Below, in pieces: positions 1-20,749 of a stretch of DNA of 64,000 nt; positions within the stretch are counted from its first letter, which is position 1, and each line of letters opens with the position of its first letter. The notes beneath the pieces were generated by a model. That model made no database searches. It saw nothing but the letters and a program-made list of their open reading frames with translations, and was not told where the DNA came from. The stretch is from Candidatus Omnitrophota bacterium (lineage in GTDB: Bacteria; Omnitrophota; Gorgyraeia; Zapsychrales; JANLHA01). The stretch covers positions 5,926 to 69,925 of the forward strand of contig JAGLNJ010000051.1 in the NCBI GenBank assembly GCA_023139575.1, read 5' to 3'. Both the position numbers and the translations under genes were made by a program.

Positions 1-3000
1 ACTGCACAATATTATCGGCGTCCAGGATCTGCCCGTTATCACCCATGATAACCTTATCGCCAAAGCCCAAAATTGTCTTGAAAGAAGCGGCGCCGGCTTC
101 CCTTTGTCCTGTATAAGCTAAAACCGTGTCGGCATCAGGATTTACTTTTAAAGCTAAAGTATTTTCATCACGCGTTAAGGTGTCATTAATTCCTCTGAGA
201 ATGAAAGATTTATCGCCTTTTTGTTTATCCAAAAAGCCCGCTAAACCGTCACTAAAAAATTTCAGCGCGTCCTTATCTTTTATTTTACCTTCCAGCACAG
301 ACAGCTCTGCCGTTCTTTTATTTAACCTCTCTTTATCCGGATCGCTGCTATAATTTTTTTCTTTATCAGAAGGTGTTTTTTCTTTTTCCGTTTCGGGGCC
401 CTTCACATCCGGCCCGGCAGGGCCTCCCGCCCCCGGTATCTGTTCTTCTTGTTCAGATTTCTTTTTGTTAGTATCATATTGATCTTTAAGAATTTTATAG
501 TATTTTTTGGATATAGGGCCTGATTCATGGGCTGCTGTTCTGCGATAAGGTGTGCCGTCAACGCCAGAACTGGCGCTGGCATAAAGATTATTGGCTTCTT
601 CTTCGATACTTGAAGTTTCTTTTGAAGGCCCGGGCTCTGACTGGCTCTCTTTCTCTTTGGGTTTTTCTTTGGGCTCTGTCGACAATTCGGTCTTTTTCTC
701 TTCTGGACTATCCGCTCCCGGCTCTTTTTTATCTTTTACTTCCCCCTTTTTATCGCGGGGTTTTCTTTCGTCATGTATAATTCCATCCATATTCATATCT
801 ACACCGCCGCCTTGAAACCCTGCTTCTTCTTGCCTCTCTTTTAAAAACTCTTTAGGGTCGGTAAAAACGGCAGATATGGATACATCCTCCCATTTTATTT
901 CTTCATACATGGATTCCCGGCCAAACGTGGCGTATATATAAGAGGATTCCTTGCCGAAAACCGGAGACCTTGACGACAAAGAAATTTCATTATAGACATA
1001 AAGCGATTTATCCCCTTCACCGCTTTTACCAAAGAGCACCTGTTCATTTGCCGATGTAATAGTGACCTCCTCCCCGCCTTCACCGCTTAAGATATCTAGG
1101 AGAGCCGCCATTGTTTCATATTCTTCTATAGACTCCTCTCTTAGATCAGAATCATCCTTCAAGTAAGAAGAATCATCCATCAAATAAGAAAAATCACCCG
1201 TCAAGCCAATAGAACCCGCATACAAATCCCCAGACATCAAGCTAAAAGCGCCAGTATTCAAAGCCCCATCCAGAGCGCCTTTACCGCTGAGAACATTCAG
1301 GAGGGCCTCAGAATAGCCCCCAGCTTTGAGTTCATCCAGGAGAGCTTCATTCTTTTCATCTGAAGAGCCTCCACCGCTGAGAACGTCTATGATGGCCTCA
1401 GAATAGCCATCAGCTTTGAGCGCATTTAGGAGCGCTGCCCACTTTTCATCTGGAGAGCCTTTACCGCTGAGAACATCTATGAGGGCCTTAGAATAGCCCC
1501 CAGCGCTGAGAACTTCTAGAAAGTCAGATAATTTTTTATCCGAATTATAACTAATTGTGATACGCTTTGCCTTCTTTCCAGGCAAAAAAATACCTTTTTC
1601 CCACCCTTCTAAAAGACTGGCAATGGTAAAGCCATCCGCATCGTGGCCGCTCTCCTCGCCATAGGAAAAGGCGCTGATCTCTTCATTAAGCATTCCGTCT
1701 ACTCCTGCTAGACGTGCTAAAAGCGTGGCGTCATCTACTTTCGGTTCAACAGATAACAGGTTTTCATCCACACCTGCCAGGCGCACAAGAAACGTGGCGT
1801 CATCTTCTTTCGATTCAATAGATAATCTTTTTGCGTCTTCCCCTTCTAAAAGAGCATGGCTGGTAAAGGTATCCCTGTCACCCGCGCCCTTCTCCTCAAA
1901 GAAATAGGAGCCCGTCCCTTCAAAGTTCAGCATGACATCGGCCTTAACGCCGTCTACACCCAAGCCCGCCACGCTTGCTATAATTTCAGGGTCTTCGTCT
2001 ATCCGCCTGTGGATCTCCACCAGATCGCTATCCTTAGAAAACGGCTTAAACAGGACATTTCCAGCCTTATCCTTCACTACTATTTCTTCCGGATCGATGC
2101 CCAGCGACTCTGTTTCCTCTTCAGTAAATTTAAGGCGCGGATCATTAAAGCCCTTATGCGCTACTGGATCAACTTTGCCTTTCGCGTTTATACTATAACC
2201 CGCGCGCATGAAACTTTTTCTTTTACCGCCAAACACGCCGATCAATTCAGCATCAGTGAGCCCCGGAGTCAATGGGCTGGCATAACCCAGAAGCACCAGC
2301 AATTTATCAAAGCCTTCTCCCCCGTCATACCTTCTGATCGAGCGGTATAATCCTAAATGCGTTAACATGTCAGTATATGACTGATTCGTTGACGCGCTTG
2401 AAAGGGCAATGCCCAAACTGGCATTTACATTAGCCTGCATGTGCTTGGCCAAGACGGTGTTTAAGGCCTTCGTTGAATGGAGAACAGCGGCGCTTTCAAT
2501 AATGTCATGGCCGGCCAGGCGCAGTTGCGCGTCATAATAAACATCGCTCGGAGCGTGCTCAATATCCCCGTCGTCATACAGTTCCTGCTGTTCGGCCTTG
2601 TGCTCAGCAAGCTGGTCCTCATAATCTTCAATATCCCGGAACTCTTGAGGGCTCAACCCGGCGCGGGCGCTGGTTTCATCAGCAAAGGCGACAAAGCTGT
2701 CCGGCCCGAACACAAATTTATCGTCTGAATTAGACATGAAGGCGTGATATGTCAGTTGGCCGACGCCGTCCTCATCTGTTTTTCCTTTTGAAGCGAATCC
2801 GGCTGTCCCATTAAATGCGGGGTGGTTGCCGTCGAAAGTTGTATAAGAATAAAGAAAATCATATCCCATTTCCAGTAAGGAGTTGCCAAATACCGAAACG
2901 AAAACACTGCCGGCGCCTTTTTTATCACTTTCAGAATGATTTTTCTTGCCGTCATACATATCCGTAAAGCTTGCCGGTGTCAGGCTGGCTAATGAAGCTG

Positions 3001-5590
3001 TTATCCCCTTTGCCGCGGCTGACCCTAAAAAGAGCAATGAGCGGATCTTCAAGGTGGCTATAACTTGTTCTTCTCCACTCGATAAACCGCTATCGGCATG
3101 GTCCTTCCCCACATTATTATCAATAACGGCGGCGATTCCTACGGTAATCAGAGACTGCAACAAAGATTTGAGCATCTCACCGCCAATGGTACACTCAACT
3201 ATTTCTCCCTTAGAATTGGCATATGTCCCCAACGGAGTACCGTCTTTCTCATCTCCTGCGCTGGCGATATAGAGGATAGCGGCTAAATTAGCCCCCAGTT
3301 CTCCCACAGCCTCGGAAAGAAGCGATTCCGTGTCAACATCGAACTCATCAGCCGCCAGTCTGCGCAGATAATAGGATGCCAGGCTTTTTGTAATTGTCAT
3401 ACCGGCGGATTTCGCCCAATTGATTAAAGAAACAACCGCCGTATTATAAACATCAACCCTAGGGCCGCCGGCATCGACTTCTCCCTTGTGCGTGAGGCCC
3501 ATAAAATCTCTGAAATACGTGCCGCACGTTTCGTCTGCGATATGAGCAAAAGAAGTCATAGCGAAGGATGTGGCTATAGAAGTAATCGCCCCTGCCAAGG
3601 CGGATCTCAACTGCGGATCCATATCCTCATCAAGGTGTTCATAAACATAATCTGATATTTCCCTGCTTATGTATGCCTTCACCAGACCTTGCGCGAAACC
3701 GTGCGCGAAACCGGTAAAAAAGACTTTTGTCATACTCATTCTGGTAATATCCAAGGCCGCCTTATTAACAACTTGCTTTTTAACCGTATTCGAAACTGTA
3801 GATGTCCCTGAAGTCCTGAACAATCTGGCAACTTTTGCTTTTGCCTTGCTCCAGGTTTTGGCCGCCCACTTCCCGGCAGCAGAATTGGCGATTTTATCCC
3901 CCGCCACCTGTAATAATGTCCTTTCAGCAGTGCTAGCCCCGGCTTGGGGGGCCATCGCAAGATCAACGAAAACTTGTGATGCTTGGGCTGCTTGGGTGGC
4001 GGTCCCCCCTGAAGTCATAACATCACCCGCTATTTCTCCTGCCTGTGCAGCGAGTTCTTGTGAAGCCCCTGCATTAATGGCTTGGGCTGCCCCTTCTCCT
4101 GCGGCGGCCGAAGCTGCGGCATCTCCCCCCGATTTTACAAAGTCTTTTCCTGCTGCTTCTCCTGCAGCCTTTGCCATTTCTTGCGTTCCCCCGCTCTTGA
4201 CTGTGTCGGACGCCGCTTGTCCTGCGGCGACTTTTGATCCTTCCGTTGCCCCTTCTCGTAATCCTTCTGCAACTATAGCCTGTTCCGCCGCCAACGCTGC
4301 GGCCTGCGCGACCATTAAACAGCTAAAACCCACTGTCAATGCTATAGTCAGGGCGGTTCCCACCAGCATCGCCGTACCGGGGTCACAAGATCCGGTAACT
4401 TGACAAGCTTGAGCCCAGGTGCTGGTCATCTCGCTTCCGGCAACTCCCATCACTGCAACTACCGCCCCACCTGAGGCACCTACAGCTCCCAGAGAGCCCA
4501 TCCACCCTCCAAAAGCGATAGATACAACGGATATCACAATATGAAGCATCATAGCGCTGCCGCTGATAAAGCCGGGCAGGTCGTCGGATTTATCTACCCA
4601 GGCATTGCCCCAAACAAAGGCCTTTTGGGCATCCGGGATAATTTGGCAGGCTATTTTTTGTTTATCTAAATCCGGAGCTAAAACAAAACCGCTGAACTGT
4701 CCCAAAAACTCTTCAATTGTAAGGATCCTGAGTTTGCCGATATCTGTAATAATCACTTCATCGTTTTCTTTGTCAACGCTCTTGACCATAACAAAGTGCT
4801 CAGGATCCAGGTTGGCAATAAAAGGCGTCTGGATCTTAAGGGCATCCTTATCTGACACTTTCGCCGCAATAAGATTAAGGCCATAAGGCTGGGCAATTTT
4901 ATCCATCGCGAACAAGGACGTCTTCAACTCAGGTTCGCCCGGCTTTACAATCTCGTTCAAAAGATCAACAATGAGCGTCGCTTGCGACAATTCTTCCAAC
5001 GTTTGATAAATATTTCGGCTTGCCAAAAGGTCTCGTAACGCATAAATACCGCAATTCAACGGATGAATGTCAGGATCCTGCAACCAGGATGCCACCTGGT
5101 TTATGCTGTTTTCATCGAATCGCAGCTTAGTCTCCAGGGAGATTTTCTTCGGCTCTTTGCCAACCATTTTGCCGCCTTCAATTCTTGTGTCAGATATATA
5201 GATATTAACACGGGGATTATCGCGGTAAGCAACTTGGCCTAAAAACTTGCGCATGGCTTTAGCTAATTCAAGGGATAATTCTTCAGCAGTCATCGGCTCT
5301 GGAAAGAGAAAAGGCAGGTCTAACGGGTTCTCTTGCGGGGCTTGAAACTTTTCAGCTCCCCACAAAACACGGGGATCATAGCTTAACGCCCAGGAAATCT
5401 GTTCAGGCACAAACACTAACACAACGAGCAGGGCAATAGTTCGCAGCCAAGTTTTAAAACGGCTCTTGAAAGGCTGCTCCGGCTTTTTATCTAAAACGAA
5501 GGCAGAGAAGTCCCCATGATCAATATTATTAATAATATTGCTATTATTTACACTTTGGGAGCCTGCATTATTGTCCAATCTGTCTTCCAT
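1..5590 (-). CDS. Giant repeat-containing secreted/membrane-anchored protein, partial (>1860 aa; 3' end beyond window edge). N-terminal signal-anchor helix, Ala/Gly-rich low-complexity block, 30-aa x3 and 23-aa x2 tandem repeats
   Basis: Reverse complement from the ATG at 5588-5590 reads open (MEDRLDNNAGSQSVNN...RTIALLVVLVFVPEQ...) down to position 1. An in-frame TAA lies 2 codons upstream of the ATG. The ORF track lists no other M-to-stop minus-strand ORF in this frame over 5.6 kb, consistent with one long frame whose stop is outside the window. Plus-strand 'ORFs' here are low-complexity mirror frames. Confidence 0.6.
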   Translation of the reverse strand, partial: MEDRLDNNAGSQSVNNSNIINNIDHGDFSAFVLDKKPEQPFKSRFKTWLRTIALLVVLVFVPEQISWALSYDPRVLWGAEKFQAPQENPLDLPFLFPEPMTAEELSLELAKAMRKFLGQVAYRDNPRVNIYISDTRIEGGKMVGKEPKKISLETKLRFDENSINQVASWLQDPDIHPLNCGIYALRDLLASRNIYQTLEELSQATLIVDLLNEIVKPGEPELKTSLFAMDKIAQPYGLNLIAAKVSDKDALKIQTPFIANLDPEHFVMVKSVDKENDEVIITDIGKLRILTIEEFLGQFSGFVLAPDLDKQKIACQIIPDAQKAFVWGNAWVDKSDDLPGFISGSAMMLHIVISVVSIAFGGWMGSLGAVGASGGAVVAVMGVAGSEMTSTWAQACQVTGSCDPGTAMLVGTALTIALTVGFSCLMVAQAAALAAEQAIVAEGLREGATEGSKVAAGQAASDTVKSGGTQEMAKAAGEAAGKDFVKSGGDAAASAAAGEGAAQAINAGASQELAAQAGEIAGDVMTSGGTATQAAQASQVFVDLAMAPQAGASTAERTLLQVAGDKIANSAAGKWAAKTWSKAKAKVARLFRTSGTSTVSNTVKKQVVNKAALDITRMSMTKVFFTGFAHGFAQGLVKAYISREISDYVYEHLDEDMDPQLRSALAGAITSIATSFAMTSFAHIADETCGTYFRDFMGLTHKGEVDAGGPRVDVYNTAVVSLINWAKSAGMTITKSLASYYLRRLAADEFDVDTESLLSEAVGELGANLAAILYIASAGDEKDGTPLGTYANSKGEIVECTIGGEMLKSLLQSLITVGIAAVIDNNVGKDHADSGLSSGEEQVIATLKIRSLLFLGSAAAKGITASLASLTPASFTDMYDGKKNHSESDKKGAGSVFVSVFGNSLLEMGYDFLYSYTTFDGNHPAFNGTAGFASKGKTDEDGVGQLTYHAFMSNSDDKFVFGPDSFVAFADETSARAGLSPQEFRDIEDYEDQLAEHKAEQQELYDDGDIEHAPSDVYYDAQLRLAGHDIIESAAVLHSTKALNTVLAKHMQANVNASLGIALSSASTNQSYTDMLTHLGLYRSIRRYDGGEGFDKLLVLLGYASPLTPGLTDAELIGVFGGKRKSFMRAGYSINAKGKVDPVAHKGFNDPRLKFTEEETESLGIDPEEIVVKDKAGNVLFKPFSKDSDLVEIHRRIDEDPEIIASVAGLGVDGVKADVMLNFEGTGSYFFEEKGAGDRDTFTSHALLEGEDAKRLSIESKEDDATFLVRLAGVDENLLSVEPKVDDATLLARLAGVDGMLNEEISAFSYGEESGHDADGFTIASLLEGWEKGIFLPGKKAKRITISYNSDKKLSDFLEVLSAGGYSKALIDVLSGKGSPDEKWAALLNALKADGYSEAIIDVLSGGGSSDEKNEALLDELKAGGYSEALLNVLSGKGALDGALNTGAFSLMSGDLYAGSIGLTGDFSYLMDDSSYLKDDSDLREESIEEYETMAALLDILSGEGGEEVTITSANEQVLFGKSGEGDKSLYVYNEISLSSRSPVFGKESSYIYATFGRESMYEEIKWEDVSISAVFTDPKEFLKERQEEAGFQGGGVDMNMDGIIHDERKPRDKKGEVKDKKEPGADSPEEKKTELSTEPKEKPKEKESQSEPGPSKETSSIEEEANNLYASASSGVDGTPYRRTAAHESGPISKKYYKILKDQYDTNKKKSEQEEQIPGAGGPAGPDVKGPETEKEKTPSDKEKNYSSDPDKERLNKRTAELSVLEGKIKDKDALKFFSDGLAGFLDKQKGDKSFILRGINDTLTRDENTLALKVNPDADTVLAYTGQREAGAASFKTILGFGDKVIMGDNGQILDADNIVQ
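1278..1547 (-). repeat. Three tandem 90-bp (30-aa) in-frame repeats inside the giant gene (protein unit ~LLxxLKAxGYSEAxIDVLSGxGSxDEK)
   Basis: Direct repeat ccttTaccgctgagaac... recurs at 1278, 1368 and 1458 with 90-bp period. Confidence 0.7.
1700..1840 (-). repeat. Two tandem 69-bp (23-aa) in-frame repeats inside the giant gene (unit ~K[EV]DDAT[FL]L[VA]RLAGVD)
   Basis: Motif cgtggcgtcatc at 1724 and 1793, period 69 bp. Confidence 0.55.
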
Positions 5591-6420
5591 AATTTAGTTT
5601 TTTAGTTTCGAATGTCCAGACTTATTTGCTCGTTTATTTTCTCCCCCAAGAAAATGCGCCAAAATGACGAGAAATAAATTGGAACGACTTGGCTGGATTC
5701 TAACTCGTGAGGAAGGCAGAATCCAGCTCTCTCGTTTAATTCAAATCGAGAGAAAAGAGCGGCTGTGATACATTGAACCTTGTATAATAATCGTCTACGA
5801 CCAAGACGATTTGATGAAGCTAAAATTTTGTTTTTTTGTATGCTATTCTTGATTTTTCGCATGTTGCTTTAGGTTTAATGCCATCCATTAAAAAAGGACT
5901 ACCGTGTATTATGGTAGTCCTATAGAATATTCACCTATCAGGCTGTTTTTGCTGAGTTGTTTTTGTGACCGTCGCGGTTAGCCGCATTCTCACTCCATGT
6001 TTAAATGAATTTAAACCAACTCTGAACTATGCCTTATAAGTATAACATAATAATATATATTGACAAGCTTGCGAATAAATTTTTTTAAGATACATCTTGT
6101 TGGTATATATTAAGTTACAATCTTATCAAAAAACTCTTTCACATAAAAAATAATAATTTTTCGGGTAATAATATTGCAAACGCTTTCTTTCCATCCCATA
6201 GAACGCATAAATTTACATTATATACAAGGAACCCCTTTCACTCCACCTTATTCCATATGTTGCGGAGAAAGAAATTTGTTTCAATTATAAAACCACAAAA
6301 GTTACATTGGTAAACCATTGTTTAATTTTTTGTTCAAACTAAGGAAGTATTAACAAGCCTTAAAGTAGATTGGACATTTGATTCGAATTCAAAAGCGCTG
6401 CAGTATTGACATTTATAGCT

Positions 6421-6477: not shown

Positions 6478-7368
6478 TTATTCTTCTATCTTACTGGTCA
6501 TCTGATCCATTGGATTAGTTTCTAAAAATTGCAGAAAAATCGGCCCCGCAACCAAAATACCAACAGTAGGAAAGATAAAGAATAATAGCGGAACTAAAAG
6601 TTTCAACGGCGCTTTCATAGCCATTTTCTCGCCCCTTCGATAACGCGAAGTACGCATATCTTCCGAAAGCATGTTCAGAGCCTCTGAAACAGACGTTCCC
6701 ATTTTGTCCGCCTGAATAAGCGTTCGGGAAAAAGTAGCCAGTTCCGCAAGATCATATTTAGATGAAAGGTCTTTTAAAGCGTCTCTGCGCGTTTTACCGA
6801 CATTAATCTCCTGAAGCAAAGTGTTGAGCTCACTTACCATGACAGAGGGAGGGGATTTCTCGACAACCCATTTTAACGCCAACATAAAGTCCAAGCCGGC
6901 ATTGACACAAAGACCTAATAAGTCAATGGCGTCCGGCAATTCTTTAACCATAACCCCCTTCACGAAGCGTATCTTTCCCTTCAACCAATATTCGGGAAGC
7001 ATATAGCCAAAGCAAAAGCTCATCAAAAACCAGAAAATCATCATGTCAGGCTTAATCATCGGATAAGAAATGGCCAAAACAAAAATGATGCACACTTCTT
7101 TAATGAAAAAAAATTCTTCCGGCGAAATCGGAAGGTGAGCCACAGACAAATCTTTAACAATTCTCGTTCTCAGCTTGCCGGAGCAAAACGGTTTATTTAT
7201 CAAAGCAATCTTCCTGAATATCGATTGTTTTTTTCCTTTACTATCCCCATCGGAAGAGGCATAACCCAGAGCCTCCAGAGTGGGTCGGCTTTCCCAACCT
7301 AAGGGAAAAAGGCCGAGAATAAAACTGAACCCCGAAAGAAATACCATCGTCAATATAAAAATAATCAT
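6478..7368 (-). CDS. tadC: Tad/Flp pilus assembly inner-membrane protein TadC (GspF/T2SSF domain)
   Basis: 296 aa with multiple TM helices. Central T2SSF-like block ELPDAIDLLGLCVNAGLDF...RRDALKDLSSKY...LIQADKMGTSVSEAL, typical of TadC/CpaH. Confidence 0.8.
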   Translation of the reverse strand: MIIFILTMVFLSGFSFILGLFPLGWESRPTLEALGYASSDGDSKGKKQSIFRKIALINKPFCSGKLRTRIVKDLSVAHLPISPEEFFFIKEVCIIFVLAISYPMIKPDMMIFWFLMSFCFGYMLPEYWLKGKIRFVKGVMVKELPDAIDLLGLCVNAGLDFMLALKWVVEKSPPSVMVSELNTLLQEINVGKTRRDALKDLSSKYDLAELATFSRTLIQADKMGTSVSEALNMLSEDMRTSRYRRGEKMAMKAPLKLLVPLLFFIFPTVGILVAGPIFLQFLETNPMDQMTSKIEE

Positions 7369-7430: not shown

Positions 7431-8285
7431 TTAGTAGTCCTTCGACGTGCTGATCTTCCAAATCATAGCGGCGCCGATGATCTCGGAAAATGCCGCATAA
7501 ATCAAAAGAGCCCGTCCATTCTGCGACTGGATCATATGATTAAAAAATGTCGGGTTCGCTCCGTATACAATAAAGAAAAAAGCCACCGGAAGCAATGACA
7601 TAACAACGCCCTGAATTTTACCTTGTATTGTCAACGTGTCAATTTGCCCCTGAACGCGCTTCTGTTCACGAATAACACCCACAATACGAGAAAAGATAGC
7701 GGGTAAATTACCTCCTGTCTCTCTCGCCAGAAGAATGGCTGTTGTCATCTGCTGCAAAGCCGACGACGGCATGCGATTGTATAAATGGTTGAACGCCTCT
7801 TCTAAGGAAACTCCCATTTTATTCTCGCCGAGAACCGTCCCGAACTCTTGATTGATAGGGTCCGGCATTTCTTCGACGACCGCTTCCATGGCCTGAATTA
7901 AACTCAACCCACCTCTAAAAGAACTCGACATAATCATCAAGGCATCAATTAACTGATTATTAAATTTTCTTCTATTGCCCTGCAACAAGGCCTTTGTATA
8001 AAGCCCCGGAAACAAAACACCAAAGGCTATGCCGATAACAATGCTGAAAACGCGCACTTGCGCCGGAGCTATCGCATAGCCGATCGCGCCGCCAACGAGA
8101 GGAGCTAAAAGATATACTTGTGAAATTTTTTGAATCTGCTGACGAGGAATTATCCTGTCCAATTTGTTGGACAATTTTTGGGCTCGCTTTTGACTTAAAC
8201 CCACTGTTTTATTATAGACGGTAGGCACCACAGAATACCCTATTAAGGCCGCGGTACAAAAAACTAAAAATAATGTGATCGCCAT
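7431..8285 (-). CDS. tadB: Tad/Flp pilus assembly inner-membrane protein TadB (GspF/T2SSF domain)
   Basis: 284 aa. T2SSF-like block FRGGLSLIQAMEAVVEEMPDPINQEFGTVLGENKMGVSLEEAFNHL...ARETGGNLPAIF. It sits directly upstream of tadC. Confidence 0.8.
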   Translation of the reverse strand: MAITLFLVFCTAALIGYSVVPTVYNKTVGLSQKRAQKLSNKLDRIIPRQQIQKISQVYLLAPLVGGAIGYAIAPAQVRVFSIVIGIAFGVLFPGLYTKALLQGNRRKFNNQLIDALMIMSSSFRGGLSLIQAMEAVVEEMPDPINQEFGTVLGENKMGVSLEEAFNHLYNRMPSSALQQMTTAILLARETGGNLPAIFSRIVGVIREQKRVQGQIDTLTIQGKIQGVVMSLLPVAFFFIVYGANPTFFNHMIQSQNGRALLIYAAFSEIIGAAMIWKISTSKDY

Positions 8286-8366: not shown

Positions 8367-8879
8367 TTATTCCTTAATACCCCAGCACATATTGCTATTA
8401 CAATTTTCGCTTCTGCAATCTGCTATGCAGATCTGACACTTTGTAGCATATTCATCATGATCTTTCGGCAAATCGCAATCACAATTAGCGCGAAAGCACT
8501 GTGATCCCACCCATATATTCATGGCTCCATCTGCCTGGGCGCAGGTATCACATATCGGTTCTCCGACAGGAATCGGACTACAAGGCGGATCATCAAGCGT
8601 GCAGCAGGGTACCAGCCATCCGGGCATTGTATAAACATTCAGGCCCCCCGTAATCACTACAGAATCATAAAAACATTCTTCCGTCGCGTTCGGATCATAC
8701 TGCTTGCCGTGGCCGAAAGAATTACCGGCATTACGCCATTGACCGGACAAACCTCGTGCTAAATATTTTTGGAAAACAAAAAATGTGCTGGCAATAAAGA
8801 ACATGACAAACATATATTCCAAGGCCGAAACTGCTTTTTTATTGTTTGCATTAGTAAATAATATTTTCTTTTTATTCAT
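8367..8879 (-). CDS. Cysteine-rich Flp/TadE-like pilin-like protein (170 aa, about 18 Cys)
   Basis: N-terminal class-III-signal-like segment KKAVSALEYMFVMFFIASTFFVF followed by YLARGLSGQWR...QYDP, a motif shared with pilin paralogs 4 and 7. The C-terminus is packed with Cys (CCTLDDPPCSP, CDTC, CDCDLP, CQICIADCRSENCNSNMC). Confidence 0.55.
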   Translation of the reverse strand: MNKKKILFTNANNKKAVSALEYMFVMFFIASTFFVFQKYLARGLSGQWRNAGNSFGHGKQYDPNATEECFYDSVVITGGLNVYTMPGWLVPCCTLDDPPCSPIPVGEPICDTCAQADGAMNIWVGSQCFRANCDCDLPKDHDEYATKCQICIADCRSENCNSNMCWGIKE

Positions 8880-8901: not shown

Positions 8902-11900
8902 TTAATTGGCGCCGGACAAAAACGCCCCGTCACACGGCACAAATTTTAACCGCATGCCTTGGTTTGCGTATAACATAGAATCACCAACACTCCTTGTCAC
9001 CAAATAGCCAAGCTCACCCATTTCACCCTCATCAAAGAAATACGCCGCGCAACTTTCCTCTACTACCCCGTGAGGCAACAAGTGCTCATGCACATAATTC
9101 CAACAATTAATATACTCAAGCTTTGAAAAACCCAGAGCCATTACCCCCCACTGAGCATCCGTTATAGCATGCGGGAAAGTGGCAATAGAATATTTGCTAT
9201 AATTTAACATAAACGCATAGCCCCACTCTGACCCATCAAGTAATTGTAACGGCCGGCACGCTCCTTCGACGCCAGCAACCTCCCCAGCTGAAAGTTCATC
9301 CGCTGCGGGATTATAATCACGAATCTCCCATAAATCTGAGTCGTCTGGAAACGTGATTACTCCTTGCACCTCTTCCGATTCATCAAACCGGATAACGCGC
9401 ACCTTTACCATACCCTCTGTGGAAACCAATTCATAACAACGGCTCGTCCCCCAATCCTTCGTGTAACTATCCACACGCGGCCACTCGGGATCCGGGCCAC
9501 CAACAGAATCAGGCCCTCCCTCAACAGGCCAATAACCGCAGGCATTATTACACCGTCCGGGAGCCCTTACCTCAACCTTGACAGCATGCCAGAAACCTTT
9601 GGAGCTTCCGTCTGCGCGCAACTCATCATCTTCCAGATCTTCGTCCTGCCACACATAAACGACGACAGATGCCGTTCCTTTTGTGTCCTCATAATTAAAG
9701 CGCGCTTGCACCATGGTTTCCATCGGAGAGTCCTGATCAAAAGGCGCGGGTGACGCCGTATTAAAAGGACTGTTTCCGTCAAGAAAGGCCGTAAAATGCT
9801 TCCATCCGTCATGCAAAATAAGCATGGCCCTTAAAGCTTCTTTCAATCTCGCTTGCAGGAACAGAAATCGTTTTTTAAATTTTGCCACCTGATTTTCCGC
9901 GTTTTTCATACAAGCTTCTGCTGTAGCCAAAAAAGCTCCCGAAGGATTAAAGGATCCTTGTGTCAGTTCCAAGCTCTCCACCAAAGAATCATACCATGTT
10001 GAATCATGCCATAAGGCTACTTCGGCGGCGGTAAACTCAGGCTCAGCAATCAGCCAAGCGCAACTAAAATAATTTTCCGGCAAAACCGTTTCCTCTTCAT
10101 AAGGCTGATCCCAAATCGGAAGCAAATAAGGATAATCAAAGGCCCAGCCGAAAGGCATCGCGGCCGGAGAGCAAAGAGTGATGCAGTCTGCGATCGCCGC
10201 CGGGTCTGGCGGTGGAACCATAAGATCCGGGGTGATATTGAAACATGCGTCAAAGGCAGCTTCATGTGCCGGGTCCGCGGGCCACTGCCATGCAGGCAGC
10301 GTAACAAGCAGCCCGGCCGAAGTGCGGTACTCCTGGGGCAACACTGAATTATTACAATTAGCCCTGCACTCCGCCATATTTGCCGAATTATAGCAAGTAT
10401 CAAACAACGCGCTTGCGACAGGATCCGGTGTTAGTTCATTAAAGTCCGGATCAGTCGCATCTCTTGCAACCAAGACCGCCGGACGGAAAGAGGCGTCACC
10501 CATAGACGGAAGAGGCGTGCCGGGAAAAGTATGGCAACTCCCTAAATTATAAGGCGGTTGTGTCATGGTTAGAGCATTTGTTACCGCATCAAAAAAGATC
10601 GTGTTATACAGTGGATCTGATGGATCATGAAACCAGGCACAACTACCCGGCTCAAGTGACGGTGGTGGTGGATCCTCAAAAACAGGCGGCACAAAGGCCG
10701 GCAATCCGGCACAATAATAATTACATTCAATAACATCCGCTGACACCAGGCATCTCATTATCTCTTCCGACGCTCCCGCGTTGCCGAAATCCATCCCCTG
10801 GAAGAGAATGGCGTCCGCCCCGGGAACCAGACACCGCGGCAATAACAAACAGGCCTCTGCCGCTCCGGCAGAATCCCCGGAAAAAAGAGCGTCAAAACAT
10901 CTTTGAAACTTCTGAGCATTTCCGATCGCGGGCGCGAGACCGCTTAGAGGGTATGTTCTTTCATCATTGACCTGCCAATTCAAACAGCTGACCACATCAA
11001 ACAGGTCTCCTCGAGACGGCTGATCAAACTCATCTGTAACGCTTCTTGTAAACATGGTCGGATCTATTTCGTTATAAACGGCCGCGGGAAAATCATCAAA
11101 AATCCAGTCACCCGCAGCAGGAACATAGTTAAAGCTGTCCGCTTCACCAAGAACAAACCCTATCGTCGGCGTTACATAAGGACATTCATTGACCCCATAT
11201 TCATTGGGGGCTGCTTGTTCCGGCGGGACGCACCAAACATCCATCTCGTTGCAACTGTCGGCAACATAGGGATTCGGCAGCACACCAATACCAAGGTCTT
11301 TAGTGTCCATACCTGCGGGATAAAAGCCCGGATGAGGAAATCCTTCATTAACTCCCATGCCATAAGGAGGGGAAAGATCAAAAGGCGGTGCTTGAGCATA
11401 AATCCAATAAAATATCCTCCACCAAAAACGATATATCTCATAACGCCATACCCATAACGTCCCATCATTTCCTTTTACAAAACTAAAAGGACATGCCCCT
11501 CCCTTAGCTCCCATATCCTCATCCAGGCGCTCTCCTGTATTAACATTTACACAAGGAGCCTCAAGCCAAGAGGATGCTATTTTATACCATTCCTTAGTTG
11601 TTTTTACCAATGCCCGTAAATTCTGGTCCAAAAGTGTTTCTGCATAAGAATAAAATTCACTTAAACCATAGACGATTTCGTCCAAAGAGTCTTCTGGATA
11701 CTCGGCTGGATCAGTCCCTCCGACCCCGCAATCACATGTATACGGCACATCCTGCAGATAAGGAAATCTAAGCCTCCTCTCTTGAGAATACGGGTCTGTG
11801 TGGTCTTCCCATGACGCGTCATCATAACACGCTCGATGTTTCGGGCAGTTTCCTTCATAAGGATACACATCCGAACAGAAACGATCCGCCCCCCTCTTCC

Positions 11901-13716
11901 ATCCCCCCTCACCTAAAGGATCCGCAGCGCAAGTGTCATCGTCGGCAATTAACCCTGCCGGCATCGGGACCTTATCCGCCAGCTGAGGAGGGTCACCCGC
12001 AGCGCCGGTATTGGCTTCGTCCAAACACCAATCGCCGCTGAAAGGAGCGTCACCTAAAATGTTAGGAAGTTCAAGCCGACTATTAATTCCATCGTGATCA
12101 TCATCGGCCATTTCCGGATATATATCAGCTAAAATACATGGCACCCCCGATCTTACATCACAATAAACACATTGATCATCAGTGTAATCTAAATATAATG
12201 GGGACAATTCTGTGCCCCAATCGGCAATTTTATGAAAAAGCTGAAAAATCCCTCCAGCAGGATAATTGTCGTTCAAAAGTCCCGGGCGCAAATCATAATT
12301 CATGGCATAAATCGGTGTTTTGTAATAACCCGAGACGTCATCTAATCTAAAAAGGCCTTCAATGGAACTCCCGACCGTGCTTTCCTGCCGTGTCAAACGC
12401 AGCCTGTCAGGATTGGCCGCATCAAAATAAGCCGGGTCTGTCGGGTTATAACGATAGAGATGGTGCTCATCATCCCGCCCCAGCAACTCTCTAAACGAAT
12501 AAAATCCATTAGTATGGTCTTCATATGCCGAATCGTAAATCTCTTCATATATTTCTCCGGCTTTATCATACGGCGTATTAGCCACACAAAGAGCCGGGTT
12601 CCCGCAAGGGTATTGCGGATCTCCAGGATCGTTACAGCAAGGCGGCATCACCGGAAGATTCTCTTCTCTGCCGTCGAATATAAGCACCCCCAAAATATCT
12701 ACACCAAAATCAGACACACAGCACGGATTACATTCTGAAGGCATGTCCAAAGGGAAGTCCGCAGGGAGGGATGGAAAGTTTCCCGGGCAGCACGGGTGTA
12801 TACCTGCCGAGGTAACACAATCTACCGGGTCTAAGAGTCCCCAGGTAGAAAACTGAGCGTTAAGATCATTACACAAGGCCACGTTCATGCCACTACTCCC
12901 ACAGTCAATATTGCATTTACCCGGATCCGCGTAAAGAAAACATGCCATGGATTGCTGAAAAAACTGAATAGCGTTAACCGGCGGGGCAATTATTGTTCGC
13001 AGTCGGTCTGTATAATAATAGGCAAACCGGGAAACATAATCACTGGCTTCATTCCTGGCAATGGCCGCATTCGTCTCCCAGTTAAGATCCTGATCAATAT
13101 CATGGAGGTCTGGAAAATAAACCTGATCCGTAATCGAATTCTGCAGCCCCATCAAAATCCCCCGCTCAATGAGCATGTCTTCAATAGAAAGGGCTTCTGC
13201 CATCATTTTATTCCATAGAGTCGTAATCCCGGGCTGCACAATTGTTAGTTGGACAACTAAAGAAGCCACAGACAAGATTAGAGCAAGACCCAAACAGACC
13301 AACTTCAGGGCAACGAAAGTCGCTGTCCCCGCGGAGGCGATAGTGATTATTATCGCAATAATGACAATGACAATCGTAAAGATGGCTTTTAAAACACCCG
13401 TCATGCCGCAAATACGCTGACGGCCCCCTAAAACTTCTTGAAATATTCTTTCCCCGTAGCTGGCCATTAAAGAAACCATATGCCCGGCAGATGCATTCGC
13501 CGCCATAACCGCAATGGTCTTGGTCCGTGAAACTCTCCCCATATTCATTACAGCCGCATAAATAATAAGAGCCAGGGCGGCTATAAGAATAAGAACAACG
13601 CCGACTTGGCCAGAGGTGTTTTTTAAAGAAGTTCTGTTTTTTTCTGAAAAGGAAAAAACGCTGTTTTTCCTGAAAACGTTTTGAATATTTTTTCGCAATA
13701 ATCTAAACATTAACAA
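8902..13716 (-). CDS. Giant (1604 aa) cysteine/proline/aspartate-rich TadG-like pilus-associated protein; putative pilus tip or adhesin
   Basis: N-terminus SGQVGVVLILIAALALIIYAAVMNMGRV resembles the Tad N-terminal (TadE/G-like) membrane domain. Two further TM helices follow, then a huge extracytoplasmic region with many CC/CxC motifs (HPCCPGNFP, CNPCCVSDFG, PPCCNDPGDPQYPCGNPALC) and D/P/Y/W-rich segments. It sits inside the tad operon. Confidence 0.6.
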   Translation of the reverse strand: MLMFRLLRKNIQNVFRKNSVFSFSEKNRTSLKNTSGQVGVVLILIAALALIIYAAVMNMGRVSRTKTIAVMAANASAGHMVSLMASYGERIFQEVLGGRQRICGMTGVLKAIFTIVIVIIAIIITIASAGTATFVALKLVCLGLALILSVASLVVQLTIVQPGITTLWNKMMAEALSIEDMLIERGILMGLQNSITDQVYFPDLHDIDQDLNWETNAAIARNEASDYVSRFAYYYTDRLRTIIAPPVNAIQFFQQSMACFLYADPGKCNIDCGSSGMNVALCNDLNAQFSTWGLLDPVDCVTSAGIHPCCPGNFPSLPADFPLDMPSECNPCCVSDFGVDILGVLIFDGREENLPVMPPCCNDPGDPQYPCGNPALCVANTPYDKAGEIYEEIYDSAYEDHTNGFYSFRELLGRDDEHHLYRYNPTDPAYFDAANPDRLRLTRQESTVGSSIEGLFRLDDVSGYYKTPIYAMNYDLRPGLLNDNYPAGGIFQLFHKIADWGTELSPLYLDYTDDQCVYCDVRSGVPCILADIYPEMADDDHDGINSRLELPNILGDAPFSGDWCLDEANTGAAGDPPQLADKVPMPAGLIADDDTCAADPLGEGGWKRGADRFCSDVYPYEGNCPKHRACYDDASWEDHTDPYSQERRLRFPYLQDVPYTCDCGVGGTDPAEYPEDSLDEIVYGLSEFYSYAETLLDQNLRALVKTTKEWYKIASSWLEAPCVNVNTGERLDEDMGAKGGACPFSFVKGNDGTLWVWRYEIYRFWWRIFYWIYAQAPPFDLSPPYGMGVNEGFPHPGFYPAGMDTKDLGIGVLPNPYVADSCNEMDVWCVPPEQAAPNEYGVNECPYVTPTIGFVLGEADSFNYVPAAGDWIFDDFPAAVYNEIDPTMFTRSVTDEFDQPSRGDLFDVVSCLNWQVNDERTYPLSGLAPAIGNAQKFQRCFDALFSGDSAGAAEACLLLPRCLVPGADAILFQGMDFGNAGASEEIMRCLVSADVIECNYYCAGLPAFVPPVFEDPPPPSLEPGSCAWFHDPSDPLYNTIFFDAVTNALTMTQPPYNLGSCHTFPGTPLPSMGDASFRPAVLVARDATDPDFNELTPDPVASALFDTCYNSANMAECRANCNNSVLPQEYRTSAGLLVTLPAWQWPADPAHEAAFDACFNITPDLMVPPPDPAAIADCITLCSPAAMPFGWAFDYPYLLPIWDQPYEEETVLPENYFSCAWLIAEPEFTAAEVALWHDSTWYDSLVESLELTQGSFNPSGAFLATAEACMKNAENQVAKFKKRFLFLQARLKEALRAMLILHDGWKHFTAFLDGNSPFNTASPAPFDQDSPMETMVQARFNYEDTKGTASVVVYVWQDEDLEDDELRADGSSKGFWHAVKVEVRAPGRCNNACGYWPVEGGPDSVGGPDPEWPRVDSYTKDWGTSRCYELVSTEGMVKVRVIRFDESEEVQGVITFPDDSDLWEIRDYNPAADELSAGEVAGVEGACRPLQLLDGSEWGYAFMLNYSKYSIATFPHAITDAQWGVMALGFSKLEYINCWNYVHEHLLPHGVVEESCAAYFFDEGEMGELGYLVTRSVGDSMLYANQGMRLKFVPCDGAFLSGAN

Positions 13717-13727
13717 ACCTTATTTTA

Positions 13728-14039
13728 TTAATCATAAGGACGGTCCTTTTGAAAAATTTCGCTTCTCACGCTCGGTTGAAAGGGCGCTGTTCCTCCCTTA
13801 TAAAAACGCGGACGCAGTTGATAAAGGATGCCGTCATAACTTGCCGGAACATCTTCTATTAAACCATCTCGATGCGCCGCCAACCTTCCGATCAAGTCCT
13901 TGCCCGACCATACAAAAAGTCTGATCGTTCCCAAAATGATCAAAACCGTTCCGAACAAGCTAAAACACAATTCTAAGGCAACCTGTGCCTTATTGCGACA
14001 TCGCTGTTCCTTTTTTCTTCTAAACAAAAAAATACGCAT
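13728..14039 (-). CDS. TadE-like pseudopilin (103 aa)
   Basis: N-terminus KAQVALELCFSLFGTVLIILGTIRLFVW matches the TadE-type N-terminal hydrophobic segment; small size; lies in the tad operon. Confidence 0.5.
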   Translation of the reverse strand: MRIFLFRRKKEQRCRNKAQVALELCFSLFGTVLIILGTIRLFVWSGKDLIGRLAAHRDGLIEDVPASYDGILYQLRPRFYKGGTAPFQPSVRSEIFQKDRPYD

Positions 14040-14048
14040 TCCGTCTCC

Positions 14049-15587
14049 TTACAAATTAGAGCCAGGCACTCTTGTAATCCATTGATGCCCCCGCTGATCA
14101 TGCACGCGGGAACGGACAACCAACAACATCGTTTCCAGATCAAGACACGTTAATTCAACGTTGGAGCCTTCATAACAATTGCCGCAAACCTCAACCGGGT
14201 TGGTCATGCCGAAAACACCATGAATAGTCGCAAAAGGAAGCCCTCCTGCCCCATATATAATAGTTTCGTCGGCTTCTTCCCAATTTACAGGAACACCGTT
14301 ACGGCAAAACCTCCCGGTATCGTTAGTTATTTTAAAAATCCTCTCTATAATATCAAGATTCTCCTGAATTAAAGTATGGCGTGTTTGACTGTTTTCCAAC
14401 TCATAAGCATTCGTTAACGCGCTTCCGTCTCCTTCAAGGCCGGTAAAAGAATACATTGTCATATCTGGCAGAAGACCAATCTTAATATAGGTTTGGGCAG
14501 GGTTTCGCAGCAAGAATATCTTAAGATCCATATCATCTTCGGCATTGTTTAAATCACCTTCTTGAGAATCCATAACTCTCAATTTTGTAACAACCCCATA
14601 TTGATCCGTTGACCAGTCAACAATACTTTCTTCTCTCAGATCCCCATCAACATCTATCAGTGTGTTAATCTGTTCGTCAGGTAATATCCCTCTTATCCCT
14701 TTATAAAAAGAGTCATCGAAAAACACATTTTTGTACTTCTTAAACTTGTCGTGGTTAACACCGGCCACCGGCATCCATTGCCATGCAAATTTACTTCGGG
14801 CAGCCGCAGTGGCTACATCAGGGGCACCGCCGCTAAAGTCCAAATCAAAACGATTCACTTCGCCAGCTTTAAAATCGTAAGGCTGGCTTTGATTGGCGAG
14901 CCTAGCAAAAAATATTGTACAGCCGACAATGCCAACACCGGGAAGAAACATGCATTGCGACTTATAACACGTACCATGAGGCGCTATGCTTTCCAAAGCA
15001 GGAACTGCAGCGTAATACGGGCTGCATTCCTGGAGGTTAACAACTCTTGTTCCTCCCGACCAGGTGTCCTGCCAGCTCACAGCGGCATTACCCGTGCCGG
15101 AAGGATAATTATAGCGGCGAAAAGCGGATAATGTAAATGGAAAACGCTGCCCGTTTATAAAAATATCCTGAACGGGAAGATTCCAATGCTCACAAATACC
15201 GTTTTCATTTGGGCATTCTACAGGATAAAACATAGCTTTAGTAAACGACGCGCTAGCTGATGCGACAAAAGGAATCCTGTCCCGAGTGCCTGTGGGTTGG
15301 GAAGCATCTGCCGACAACCTGTCTTCCAAAACCAATACTGACGCCGTATTCCGAGCTGCAGACGTCTGATAGGTTATGGTTCCATAGTTATATTTACCTT
15401 CTCCCGTGCGAAAAGACTCAATCATAGCCAGACGCATCGTCTTCAGGCTCTGATTCATCATTGAGCTGGACTGCAGGGCAGCCTTCACGATGAGCCCAAT
15501 AATAAAAATAACAATGGCTCCGAAAATGGCTAATTCGGTAGCTGATTGTGCTAATCTCAATTTTTTTTTCTTTGGGCTATTCAACAT
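14049..15587 (-). CDS. TadG/TadE-like large pseudopilin (512 aa)
   Basis: N-terminus KKKLRLAQSATELAIFGAIVIFIIGLIV (class-III-like A-Q-S-x-x-E-L plus a TM helix), followed by a large Cys-containing soluble domain. It lies immediately downstream of the pilin array. Confidence 0.55.
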   Translation of the reverse strand: MLNSPKKKKLRLAQSATELAIFGAIVIFIIGLIVKAALQSSSMMNQSLKTMRLAMIESFRTGEGKYNYGTITYQTSAARNTASVLVLEDRLSADASQPTGTRDRIPFVASASASFTKAMFYPVECPNENGICEHWNLPVQDIFINGQRFPFTLSAFRRYNYPSGTGNAAVSWQDTWSGGTRVVNLQECSPYYAAVPALESIAPHGTCYKSQCMFLPGVGIVGCTIFFARLANQSQPYDFKAGEVNRFDLDFSGGAPDVATAAARSKFAWQWMPVAGVNHDKFKKYKNVFFDDSFYKGIRGILPDEQINTLIDVDGDLREESIVDWSTDQYGVVTKLRVMDSQEGDLNNAEDDMDLKIFLLRNPAQTYIKIGLLPDMTMYSFTGLEGDGSALTNAYELENSQTRHTLIQENLDIIERIFKITNDTGRFCRNGVPVNWEEADETIIYGAGGLPFATIHGVFGMTNPVEVCGNCYEGSNVELTCLDLETMLLVVRSRVHDQRGHQWITRVPGSNL

Positions 15588-15614
15588 TTTTATATTAACT
15601 TCTCGGGTTGCTCT

Positions 15615-15944
15615 TTATGGAATTAACGATACGGATCCTGCCACGGACTGTGTCATATTCGCCGTATCAAGACGCAAAGTCCAATATCCCGGCTCGCTGT
15701 TAACAAGGTCTGGAACTGCTTCCGTATATGTTGTCGAATTGCCGGTCGTCGAATACGTCACCGCACCATTCATAAGCTCAGGATCATATTGATCGCCTAT
15801 CCCGTCAACGGCATCGCGCCACCTTCCCTGAATCCCTCTTTTAAAATAAATGCCGCCGACAAAAACAGCGGCCACAATAATCGTTGTCAACACAATATAC
15901 TCTGAAGCGCTTTGTCCCATCTTTTTTTTCATTCTAATGAGCAT
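15615..15944 (-). CDS. Flp-type prepilin paralog 7 (109 aa)
   Basis: MKKKMGQSASEYIVLTTIIVAAVFVGGI carries the G/QSxxEY class-III signal plus a TM helix. YFKRGIQGRWRDAVDGIGDQYDP is shared with paralog 4 and the 170-aa Cys-rich protein. RBS GGTGG lies upstream of the ATG at 15944. Confidence 0.7.
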   Translation of the reverse strand: MLIRMKKKMGQSASEYIVLTTIIVAAVFVGGIYFKRGIQGRWRDAVDGIGDQYDPELMNGAVTYSTTGNSTTYTEAVPDLVNSEPGYWTLRLDTANMTQSVAGSVSLIP

Positions 15945-15967
15945 TTTCCACCTTCTTTTTTCACCCT

Positions 15968-16318
15968 TTATAACGGATCCTTCTCGAGAAACCCCAAATT
16001 AGCATGCGTTTCTGTCATAACACTCTGCCCACGCATAATTGAATAAGTAGTCTCTCCCATATCTTCTGCTTTCGTTTTTGAGTCACTTAGCTGAATTTGC
16101 GCCGTTGAGTTAATCACTATCCCCATTTTTCCGCCAAGCTGTTCCGCCTCTTCTTGATTTCCCACTTGATCTGACATCATTTTTACCATGGCCTGCGCCG
16201 TTCTCTTGACCATTGGAGTCATAACCATTCCTATAGAAAATATAACGCCCAGCAAAAAGGTATATTCCAAAACTGTTTGCGCTTTTTTCTTTGATTGTTT
16301 GTTTTTGTATCTTATCAT
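15968..16318 (-). CDS. Flp-type prepilin paralog 6 (116 aa)
   Basis: KKKAQTVLEYTFLLGVIFSIGMVM; A at -1 of the putative cleavage site; hydrophobic helix. Confidence 0.6.
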   Translation of the reverse strand: MIRYKNKQSKKKAQTVLEYTFLLGVIFSIGMVMTPMVKRTAQAMVKMMSDQVGNQEEAEQLGGKMGIVINSTAQIQLSDSKTKAEDMGETTYSIMRGQSVMTETHANLGFLEKDPL

Positions 16319-16326
16319 AAATATAT

Positions 16327-16698: not shown

Positions 16699-16764
16699 TA
16701 ATCTATAAATATTAGTATGAATATTAAATAATTAAAATAGAAAATTTGCTCTACCTCACAAAAT

Positions 16765-16807: not shown

Positions 16808-16853
16808 ATTTAACACATTAAACATTCCTTTTACTTAAACTAGGGCGATGAAA

Positions 16854-20734: not shown

Positions 20735-20749
20735 TTCACTCCCGAAAGG

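Follow-up and report, generated by a model that had tools for sequence, protein, structure and literature searches.

A cysteine-rich Flp-type pilin encoded directly before tadB in Omnitrophota, probably a minor subunit of the Tad pilus

We analyse here a gene at positions 8367-8879 on the minus strand of a 64,000-nucleotide stretch of DNA from a Candidatus Omnitrophota bacterium (assembly GCA_023139575.1, contig JAGLNJ010000051.1; this whole stretch is called the window), where it lies in a Tad (type IVc) pilus locus directly before tadB. Its product, a protein of 170 residues that is called the Cys-rich pilin below, is very probably a prepilin-type minor subunit of the Tad system that has a Flp-type N-terminus and a disulfide-rich head. 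The protein, annotated as 'hypothetical protein', is a member of a phylum-wide family that has no Pfam or NCBIfam model; this is a well-defined new family but not a new mechanism. With less certainty, although we favour this reading, the protein would be a tip-associated or adapter-like minor pilin to which a disulfide-knotted head has been added.

The gene has an ATG start, and it is delimited by the call of the open reading frame (ORF), by an exact match in NCBI (MCK5214379.1, 'hypothetical protein KAR05_03385 [Candidatus Omnitrophica bacterium]') and by a syntenic ortholog, P0001, which lies on a metagenome contig from ENA and is flanked by the C-terminus of a homolog of the giant protein discussed below and by TadB/TadC. 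The ORF starts 22 nt past the stop of the ORF of that giant protein (8902-13716, 1604 residues) and ends 81 nt before tadB, with no minus-strand terminator-like site in this 81-nt gap, and the plus-strand ORFs overlapping 8367-8879 encode only 50-54 residues. P0001 is 84% identical to the Cys-rich pilin and keeps 14 of the 14 Cys despite 29 non-synonymous changes in the head, with the ratio of non-synonymous to synonymous rates (dN/dS, NG86) being 0.13 for residues 1-63, 0.89 for residues 64-170 and 0.50 overall, where the difference between the N-terminal part and the head has a Fisher P = 0.014. For the more divergent pair of loci L008 and L009 the ratio (omega) of the Cys-rich pilin gene is 0.075. 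Because there are a syntenic ortholog and purifying selection, the ORF is a translated gene and not an overprint, and 8367-8879 is a real, conserved gene. An overprinted frame of a different gene, which the first-pass annotation of this DNA had kept in view, or a spurious ORF is rejected on the conserved ortholog, the purifying selection and a family of hundreds of members.

The N-terminus of the Cys-rich pilin consists of the basic leader MNKKKILFTNANNKKA, the predicted cut site, VSALEY (KKA|VSALEY) and then a hydrophobic helix, so that the class-III-like N-terminus of SALEY plus a transmembrane helix that had been claimed for it is indeed present. From the motif statistics of the family, residues 1-16 (8832-8879, on the minus strand as are all the features of the locus given below) are predicted to form a class-III prepilin leader that would be cleaved after A16, with A at -1, E at +5 and Y at +6. 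The motif can be located in 150 relatives, of which 145 have A (82) or G (63) at -1, 149 have E at +5, and 141 have Y (122) or F (19) at +6. G/XXXXEY is the prepilin-peptidase motif of the Flp/TadE/TadF type. Directly past the predicted cut site there follows the hydrophobic α1-N segment of about 20 residues (VSALEYMFVMFFIASTFFVF, residues 17-36, 8772-8831), delineated by the helix of the AlphaFold2 (AF2) model and by hhalign to the profiles of Flp-like paralogs, and then the amphipathic α1-C segment with the conserved motif QKYLARGLSGQWRNAGNSFGHGKQYDP (residues 37-63, 8691-8771), which is seen in the family consensus, in the paralogs and in the headless forms described below.

This N-terminal part connects the protein with the pilins of its own locus. 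Seven Cys-free Flp/class-III pilin paralogs are encoded upstream at 15615-18148 (15615-15944, 15968-16318, 16327-16698, 16854-17204, 17234-17611, 17668-17934 and 17936-18148), with matches to PF04021 (E 7.8e-6) and PF04964 (E 1.7e-4). The post-helix motif of the Cys-rich pilin is RGLSGQWRNAGNSFGHGKQYDP, and the sharing of this motif with paralogs 4 and 7, as had been proposed, holds with a difference in degree: the paralog at 15615-15944 carries a near-exact version, RGIQGRWRDAVDGIGDQYDP, and that at 16854-17204 a looser one, RGIQGRMRSATDDIGDQYAP (RGIQGRMR...QYAP). The similarity to the upstream pilins is statistically supported, with single-pair BLASTP against these two paralogs giving E 7e-11 and 3e-9 over residues 7-63/74, and BLASTP against all 20 locus proteins giving 5.6e-9 and 2e-7, together with 5.6e-4 for a third paralog. 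By hhalign, the family aligned to the orthologs of the two shortest paralogs gives probabilities of 95.7% (E 9e-9), for a group in which 7 of 11 members are positive for Flp_Fap (PF04964), and 97.4% (E 1e-11), for a group whose window member matches Class_IIIsignal (PF04021) above threshold. The N-terminus is, on these alignments, homologous to Flp-type pilins, including recognised Flp/class-III-signal pilins, and this, together with the motif statistics, points to leader cleavage and incorporation of the Cys-rich pilin into the pilus. It is noted that paralog 4 (16854-17204, 116 residues) is by far the most conserved pilin, with 51-74% identity across most loci and a dN like that of TadB, and that it has the RGxxGRxR...GDQYxP motif in common with the Cys-rich pilin; it is a candidate for the major subunit, or shaft subunit, and the Cys-rich pilin may imitate it.

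The Cys-rich pilin does not have the properties of a canonical Flp major pilin, which is a precursor of about 50-80 residues that is Cys-free and has no globular domain. Since it has 170 residues, a head of 107 residues and 14 Cys, it is not to be filed as such. Neither do the Cys-rich pilin and its relatives match the TadE/TadF pseudopilin model PF07811.

The head spans residues 64-170 (8370-8690), as delimited by the Cys count, the alignments, the core of the AF2 model and a head hidden Markov model (HMM), and all 14 Cys are within residues 69-165. Thirteen per cent of the head (14/107) is Cys, versus 0.8-0.9% in housekeeping proteins and the other locus proteins (binomial P about 1e-13) and zero Cys in the seven upstream paralogs. 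The C-terminal domain of about 110 residues with about 18 Cys that the first-pass annotation described is thus present and strongly enriched, at 107 residues, but it holds 14 Cys. Its conserved core is formed by C69 and residues 122-165 (W123, C128, C133, C135, C148, C151, C155, C160), in which the eight Cys columns (C69, C128, C133, C135, C148, C151, C155, C160) are kept in 69-99% of members. Beyond this core, the Cys-rich pilin has C165 and a lineage-specific insertion of 52 residues (70-121, 8517-8672) with five extra Cys (C92, C93, C100, C110, C113), which is seen in the alignments and has AF2 predicted local distance difference test (pLDDT) values of 50-57; most members are without the insertion.

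In the mature part, 135 of 150 relatives (90%) have an even number of Cys, with the mode at 8 and with 6 (23 members), 10 (17 members) and 14 (8 members) being common. Since these even counts are often 6, 10 or 14, disulfide pairing fits them better than Cys4 metal sites. The correlations between Cys columns, e.g. 0.64 for C128-C155 and 0.53 for C133-C151, are too noisy for a disulfide map to be drawn from them. On inspection of the Cys-rich pilin, neither CxxCH (heme) nor ferredoxin-type spacing is present. With the conserved Cys being even in number, without a metal-cluster motif and past an export signal, the head has the properties of a disulfide-rich extracytoplasmic domain, and disulfide bonding is favoured by the even counts and the predicted extracytoplasmic topology. 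By contrast, it could be proposed that the Cys coordinate Zn or Fe-S and that the head is a metal-stabilised or redox-active module. For this proposal, CxxC occurs at C110-x2-C113 and C148-x2-C151 and CxC at C133 and C135, and the hosts are largely anaerobic, where oxidative folding is less obvious (general knowledge; habitat data in PMC10066038). However, the family counts are often not multiples of four, the core holds a single CxxC and neither of the heme and ferredoxin spacings, no His, Asp or Glu partners are conserved, and the head lies past a prepilin-type export signal and so would be extracytoplasmic, so that we consider metal coordination improbable.

With a multiple sequence alignment (MSA) of 80 sequences, AF2 gives a helix of 42 residues (14-55), with pLDDT >90 for residues 21-50, and a head core of strands 69-72 and 122-125 and helices 126-132 and 144-154 with pLDDT of about 88; the model obtained with an MSA of 2 sequences (pLDDT 39.5) was unusable. 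Structure prediction, which had been suggested as a check, thus gives a predicted pilin-like 'lollipop' of a long helix and a very small head. A Foldseek search of the PDB with the AF2 model returned no structural match, and a sequence-profile search of the PDB returned nothing significant.

While a word-indexed search with the single protein gave one relative, exhaustive HMMER of 1.84 billion cluster representatives exposed the family, to which 342 of them belong at an E threshold of 1e-3 and 77 at one of 1e-10. The members are 69-214 residues long, have 6-25 Cys and carry lineage-specific insertions, and their consensus is kkaqS.lEY..Li.fil.AflvFQkYI.RG..GRWK.vGDsFG.GRQYDP..T.EC.fd...WYd..Cfe..C...C....C..Ci..C....C. 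In three members (P0009, P0020 and P0049) the head is extended by extra Cys-rich repeats (e.g. CGDGICNGSEDCPSCPTDCGC) and proline-rich tails, up to 25 Cys, and from their sequences these heads show what appears to be modular growth.

The genomic position of the family is fixed. A scan of the GTDB species representatives, with a family alignment of 12 sequences as the query, gave 24 loci, which are labelled as Omnitrophota or as Third Party Annotation (TPA) metagenome-assembled genomes (MAGs) of 'uncultured Planctomycetales' with the same synteny, except L026, a MAG labelled Deltaproteobacteria. BLAST annotation of the ORFs shows a conserved order in about 20 loci, and likewise in a 161-kb contig from JGI: the gene of a 629-residue protein, seven pilins (pil1-pil7), a 512-residue protein (p512), a 103-residue protein (p103), the giant, the Cys-rich pilin, TadB and TadC. 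Across the loci the p512 homolog has 6-26 Cys, the giant has 1072-1724 residues and 34-68 Cys, and the Cys-rich pilin has 99-164 residues and 6-16 Cys. The order of giant, Cys-rich pilin, TadB and TadC holds in L001-L023, with one copy of the Cys-rich pilin per locus, and the HMM of the head only finds one ORF per locus, always in the same slot, in 22 loci at E < 1e-4. The earlier proposal of a minor pilin with a disulfide-stabilised head is therefore in keeping with a single copy, a fixed slot, the rate of the surrounding block given below and the even Cys counts, while its specialisation is not a one-off but a feature of a phylum-wide family.

In more remote loci, whose TadB is only about 40% identical, a reduced form occupies this slot, just in front of TadB. 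The called ORFs have 66 residues and 0 Cys in L024, 68 residues and 1 Cys in L025, and 94 residues and 3 Cys in L027, and these short, headless Flp-like proteins stop 6-8 residues past QYDP (e.g. ...GRQYDPAATVVTVN); in L026 the slot holds a protein of 102 residues with one Cys. Since the headless orthologs end just past QYDP, the conserved function is expected to reside in the Flp-like part, which is also consistent with the dN/dS of 0.13 versus 0.89 in the two parts of the window's gene. On these alignments the ancestral element is the segment of Flp-like α1 plus GRW...QYDP, with the Cys-rich head being an accretion in one large clade, and the clade with the Cys-rich head also carries homologs of the window's giant. 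Upstream of the headless pilin of L027 there are TadE-like, pseudopilin-like and TadG-like (1157 residues, 30 Cys) genes. We also observed that L024 (1910-2419), L025 (643-1224) and L027 (9592-10035) have an extra gene of about 150-190 residues between the big protein and the headless pilin, which in L024 and L025 has a lipoprotein-like N-terminus (...LLAGC...DDVSFAR) and which is absent from the head-bearing loci; it might substitute functionally for the head.

The three genes upstream of the Cys-rich pilin are p512 (14049-15587), whose product is TadE-like, has 10 Cys and a pilin-type N-terminus A|QSATELAIFG, p103 (13728-14039), whose product is pseudopilin-like from its N-terminus (A|QVALEL...), and the giant, which has 55 Cys and a TadG-like N-terminus (SG cut QVGVVLILIAAL; G|QVGVVLIL, with no E at +5) with a weak match to PF13400 (TadE/G-like, E 0.06). 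Among 37 N-termini of the orthologs of p512, p103 and the giant, 4 match PF07811 TadE (best E 1.2e-4) and 2 match PF13400 (best 7.5e-5). Judged from the N-termini and from Pfam matches that are below threshold, these data suggest that p512, p103 and the giant are a TadE/F/G-like tip module, in which the equivalent of TadG is a protein of 1100-1700 residues with 34-68 Cys. A Flp-like minor pilin encoded beside TadE/F/G-like tip genes is accordingly found in about 20 loci, where the TadE/G-like nature of the neighbours is weakly supported.

The evolutionary rates place the Cys-rich pilin with these genes. Between L008 and L009 the dN is 0.097 for the Cys-rich pilin, 0.085 for the giant, 0.125 for p103 and 0.060 for p512, versus 0.013 for TadB, 0.020 for TadC, 0.012 for pil4 and 0.017 for pil7, and the same ranking is seen in other genome pairs and in the protein distances over 13 taxa. 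The rate of the Cys-rich pilin is that of the giant/pseudopilin block and 5-8 times that of TadB/C, and the gene is therefore part of a fast-evolving block of four consecutive genes. As a separate observation, the orthologs of pilins 2-4 (16854-17934 in the window) in L007, L008 and L009 have a synonymous rate (dS) of 0.05-0.7, versus about 1 to >2 in all flanking genes of the same genome pairs, which suggests either that the pilin cassette has recently undergone exchange or gene conversion, or that codon selection acts very strongly on the major pilin(s).

A pairing of the Cys-rich pilin with the giant at the pilus tip had been suggested, with co-evolution as a way to check it. A mirror-tree analysis over 13 taxa, with TadB and TadC controlled, gives noisy partial r values of 0.04 with the giant, which is no signal, 0.25 with p512, 0.31 with pil7 and 0.45 with p103. 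It would nevertheless be possible that the head serves specifically for docking to the giant, with the two proteins forming a heterodimer at the tip and the Cys-rich pilin being a fourth tip subunit, not a shaft adapter. The two genes are adjacent in about 20 loci, often 0-60 nt apart, the two proteins are both Cys-rich and have equally fast rates of evolution, every head-bearing pilin is accompanied by a homolog of the giant, and L024-L027, which have no homolog of the giant detectable by BLAST, have headless or Cys-poor pilins. This co-occurrence is however confounded by phylogeny, with one clade being compared with its outgroups. L027 has a TadG-like protein of 1157 residues with 30 Cys and yet a headless pilin, the partial r with the giant is below those with p103 and pil7, and a search of the giant and p512 with the head HMM found no related module. 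We thus consider a dedicated heterodimer rather doubtful, though worth keeping in mind.

We favour instead the reading of a tip-associated or adapter-like minor pilin, with the following proposed pathway. Prepilin peptidase would remove the basic leader of 16 residues past Ala16, and the mature protein of about 154 residues would pack into the pilus via the Flp-type α1 helix and the GxW(R/K)...G(R/K)QYDP segment, the packing segment that in sequence is most like the locus's own conserved pilins. It would act at the filament tip with the products of the three upstream genes, p512, p103 and the giant, most likely as an adapter or coupling subunit between the tip/priming complex and the pilus shaft. 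An ancestral headless adapter of about 50 mature residues would have gained in this lineage a small, fast-evolving C-terminal head, which consists of a core of about 50 residues with 8 Cys and the insertion of 52 residues, giving 14 Cys and up to 7 disulfides, and which would be exposed at or near the tip and rigidified by the disulfides. The model for this role is the Kil Tad pilus of Myxococcus xanthus, in which KilL/KilM/KilN, homologs of TadE/F/G, form spearhead Tip complexes with many predicted disulfides, and in which KilK/KilO are Flp-like adapter minor pilins that are encoded beside the Kil tips, attach the α1 bundle of the tip to the shaft and are required for the priming of polymerisation, a role that was shown genetically (Herrou et al. 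2025, PMC12075869). An adapter or tip-associated role agrees with where the pilin of slot 8 is encoded, with its N-terminal type and copy number and with the rate class of its gene, and the agreement is close for the headless forms. By analogy with Kil, a tip or adapter position is proposed, and a contact with the giant is plausible.

Several points weigh against this reading. The Cys-rich pilin is not small and fully α-helical, as an adapter of this kind is and as the headless proteins of L024, L025 and L027 would be; since KilK/KilO are small and all-helical while the Cys-rich pilin has a head of 107 residues, it may be a fourth tip subunit and not an adapter. The co-evolution analysis, which is weak evidence, gives no specific signal with the giant and a modest one with p103. 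The AF2 model reaches only moderate confidence (mean pLDDT 75, predicted template-modelling score 0.50), with the insertion unmodelled. Most Omnitrophota are anaerobes. The Cys-rich pilin matches no pilin model, and indeed no family, in Pfam or NCBIfam at E up to 1, among 80 family members there is no match to a Pfam pilin model at E up to 0.01, and a prepilin peptidase (peptidase A24, TadV/CpaA) was not recognised among the window ORFs scanned.

The last of these points would also be expected if the protein were not a pilus subunit at all, and instead sat in the inner membrane as an uncleaved bitopic protein, whose Cys-rich domain would be periplasmic and which would act with the TadB/TadC platform. 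The position of the gene, which directly precedes tadB without an intervening terminator-like site, agrees with such a role. Against it, the near-invariant -1 (A/G), +5 (E) and +6 (Y/F) are hallmarks of prepilin-peptidase substrates, and there would be no reason for their conservation in a simple membrane anchor. In addition, the N-terminus shares homology with the Flp pilins encoded nearby, and the rate matches that of the tip block and not that of TadB/C. We therefore regard an uncleaved membrane protein as very improbable.

The fast evolution of the head could also be read as an arms race with prey surfaces, in which the head would be a hypervariable prey- or host-recognition (adhesin) module that is independent of the giant. 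This is consistent with the dN/dS of 0.89 for the head in the closest pair with all Cys kept, with the wide variation across the family in head length (total protein 88-214 residues), Cys number (6-25) and insertions, and with the tips of Myxococcus exposing variable domains that set the prey range (PMC12075869). However, the high omega comes from a single close pair with 8 synonymous and 29 non-synonymous changes, while the whole gene is under clear purifying selection in the more divergent pair (omega 0.075), and the head is tiny compared with the adjacent giant of 1100-1700 residues, which is the more obvious adhesin. An independent adhesin is thus unlikely in our view. A combined possibility, which is speculative and to which we give little credence, is that the family is a hitherto unrecognised class of Tad minor pilin, a Flp-derived adapter whose hypervariable, knottin-like head is a specificity element that couples a predation or attachment pilus to the Cys-rich tip protein, and might also couple it to the 'archaeovorin'-type giants downstream of TadC; if this were true, the head would diversify along with the range of prey or hosts, or with the cargo chosen.

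The remainder of the locus is as follows. A complete Tad locus is on the minus strand, with CpaB, secretin, a TadZ-TadA fusion, TadB and TadC all present. Its order is a peptidyl-prolyl isomerase, CpaB/RcpC, a secretin with a TonB_C tail, the TadZ-TadA fusion, a DUF192 protein and the 629-residue protein, followed by the seven pilins, p512, p103, the giant of 1604 residues, the Cys-rich pilin, TadB, TadC and an ORF of at least 1864 residues. TadB (7431-8285), directly downstream of the Cys-rich pilin, and TadC (6478-7368) are platform proteins of the T2SSF family. Two features are unusual for Tad systems: TadZ (ParA/MinD-like) and TadA (T2SSE ATPase) are fused in one protein of 723 residues (21091-23262), and the secretin (23390-25270) has a C-terminal TonB_C domain past an acidic linker. 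The 629-residue protein (18527-20416), whose only match is a weak one to HTH_32, is directly upstream of the pilin array in most related loci, and the DUF192 (COG1430) protein (20750-21094) is conserved between it and TadZ-TadA, also in L026. Directly downstream of TadC, a stop-free ORF of at least 1864 residues (2-5593, minus strand) runs off the start of the window; it has an N-terminal transmembrane segment and a Peptidase_C39-like domain at residues 221-307 (E 1.3e-8), and L027 has a homolog of 1699 residues in the same place. This ORF probably represents the 5' portion of one of the Omnitrophota 'giant genes' that, according to West-Roberts et al., follow this secretion locus.

The window is the origin region of an Omnitrophota chromosome, with dnaA, dnaN, gyrB, gyrA, parAB and yidC present. 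The cumulative GC-skew minimum is at about 36000-39000 (about 36-38 kb), with dnaA/dnaN/gyrB/gyrA on one side and yidC/parAB on the other, which indicates the replication origin. The Tad locus is within about 30 kb of this origin, as it is for V. archaeovorus (CP019384.1, locus 12382-29832; PMC10066038).

Omnitrophota are abundant, uncultured and ultra-small and are thought to be predators or parasites, and their Tad locus, which is conserved and is expressed in the one enrichment culture, is linked in the genomes to the largest known genes (PMC10066038; bioRxiv 10.1101/2023.11.21.568195). Seymour et al. 2023 (PMC10066038) gave a phylogeny of TadBC/RcpA and the expression in Velamenicoccus archaeovorus, West-Roberts et al. 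2023 (bioRxiv 10.1101/2023.11.21.568195) described a conserved secretion locus preceding giant genes, and a 2026 preprint described Tad cassettes flanking giant genes. The prior annotation of the locus comprised only TadB/C, RcpA and 'small genes with class III signal peptides'. We found no description of a Cys-rich Tad pilin in Omnitrophota in the literature, and the word 'cysteine' does not occur in this context in Seymour et al., West-Roberts et al. or the 2026 preprint. With the present analysis, one anonymous gene of the locus becomes a defined family with a fixed slot and a candidate for a new protein-family model. The locus gains a putative tip module (TadE-like, pseudopilin, TadG-like giant and Cys-rich pilin) that parallels the experimentally dissected Kil tips of Myxococcus, so that the tip of the Omnitrophota pilus becomes directly modellable and a concrete target for multimer modelling and proteomics. 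In addition, the series of headless and head-bearing forms is natural material on how Flp pilins acquire globular domains.

Finally, we compare the Cys-rich pilin with known systems. It is like KilK/KilO in having a Flp-type prepilin N-terminus, in being a single minor copy next to TadE/F/G-like genes and in belonging to the Tad locus of a probable predator. The headless orthologs (precursors of 66-94 residues) are small Flp-like proteins as is KilO (59 residues), and the associated tip proteins are, as in Kil, rich in predicted disulfides. It is noted that KilK/KilO have no Cys-rich globular head of 107 residues and that the likeness is drawn from N-terminal type, locus and copy number, with the adapter function here being proposed by analogy. 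With TadE/TadF (PF07811; Aggregatibacter, Pseudomonas, Caulobacter CpaJ/CpaK) the Cys-rich pilin shares the prepilin-type N-terminus with E at +5, a globular part past α1 and the status of a minor component of the tad operon, but it lacks a PF07811 match, its GRWK..GDSFG.GRQYDP motif and head are unrelated, and the TadE/F-like roles appear to be filled already by the 512-residue and 103-residue genes. With the Flp/Fap pilins (PF04964) and the class III signal (PF04021) it has the same leader, cleavage-site motif and hydrophobic helix, and it differs from them in length (170 versus about 50-80 residues), in its 14 Cys versus none in the paralogs, in its globular head and in the absence of a direct Pfam match. 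Type IVa/IVb pilins with a disulfide-bounded D-region resemble it in the 'lollipop' of an α1 helix and a disulfide-stabilised head, while they carry a signal of the GFTLIE type versus the Tad/Flp-type signal here, and its head is far smaller and far more Cys-dense than theirs and has no Foldseek match in the PDB. The tip complexes of minor pilins and PilY1 in type IVa pili, and of GspHIJK in type II secretion systems, offer a likeness in organisation, in that minor pilins start the assembly and display a large protein at the tip.

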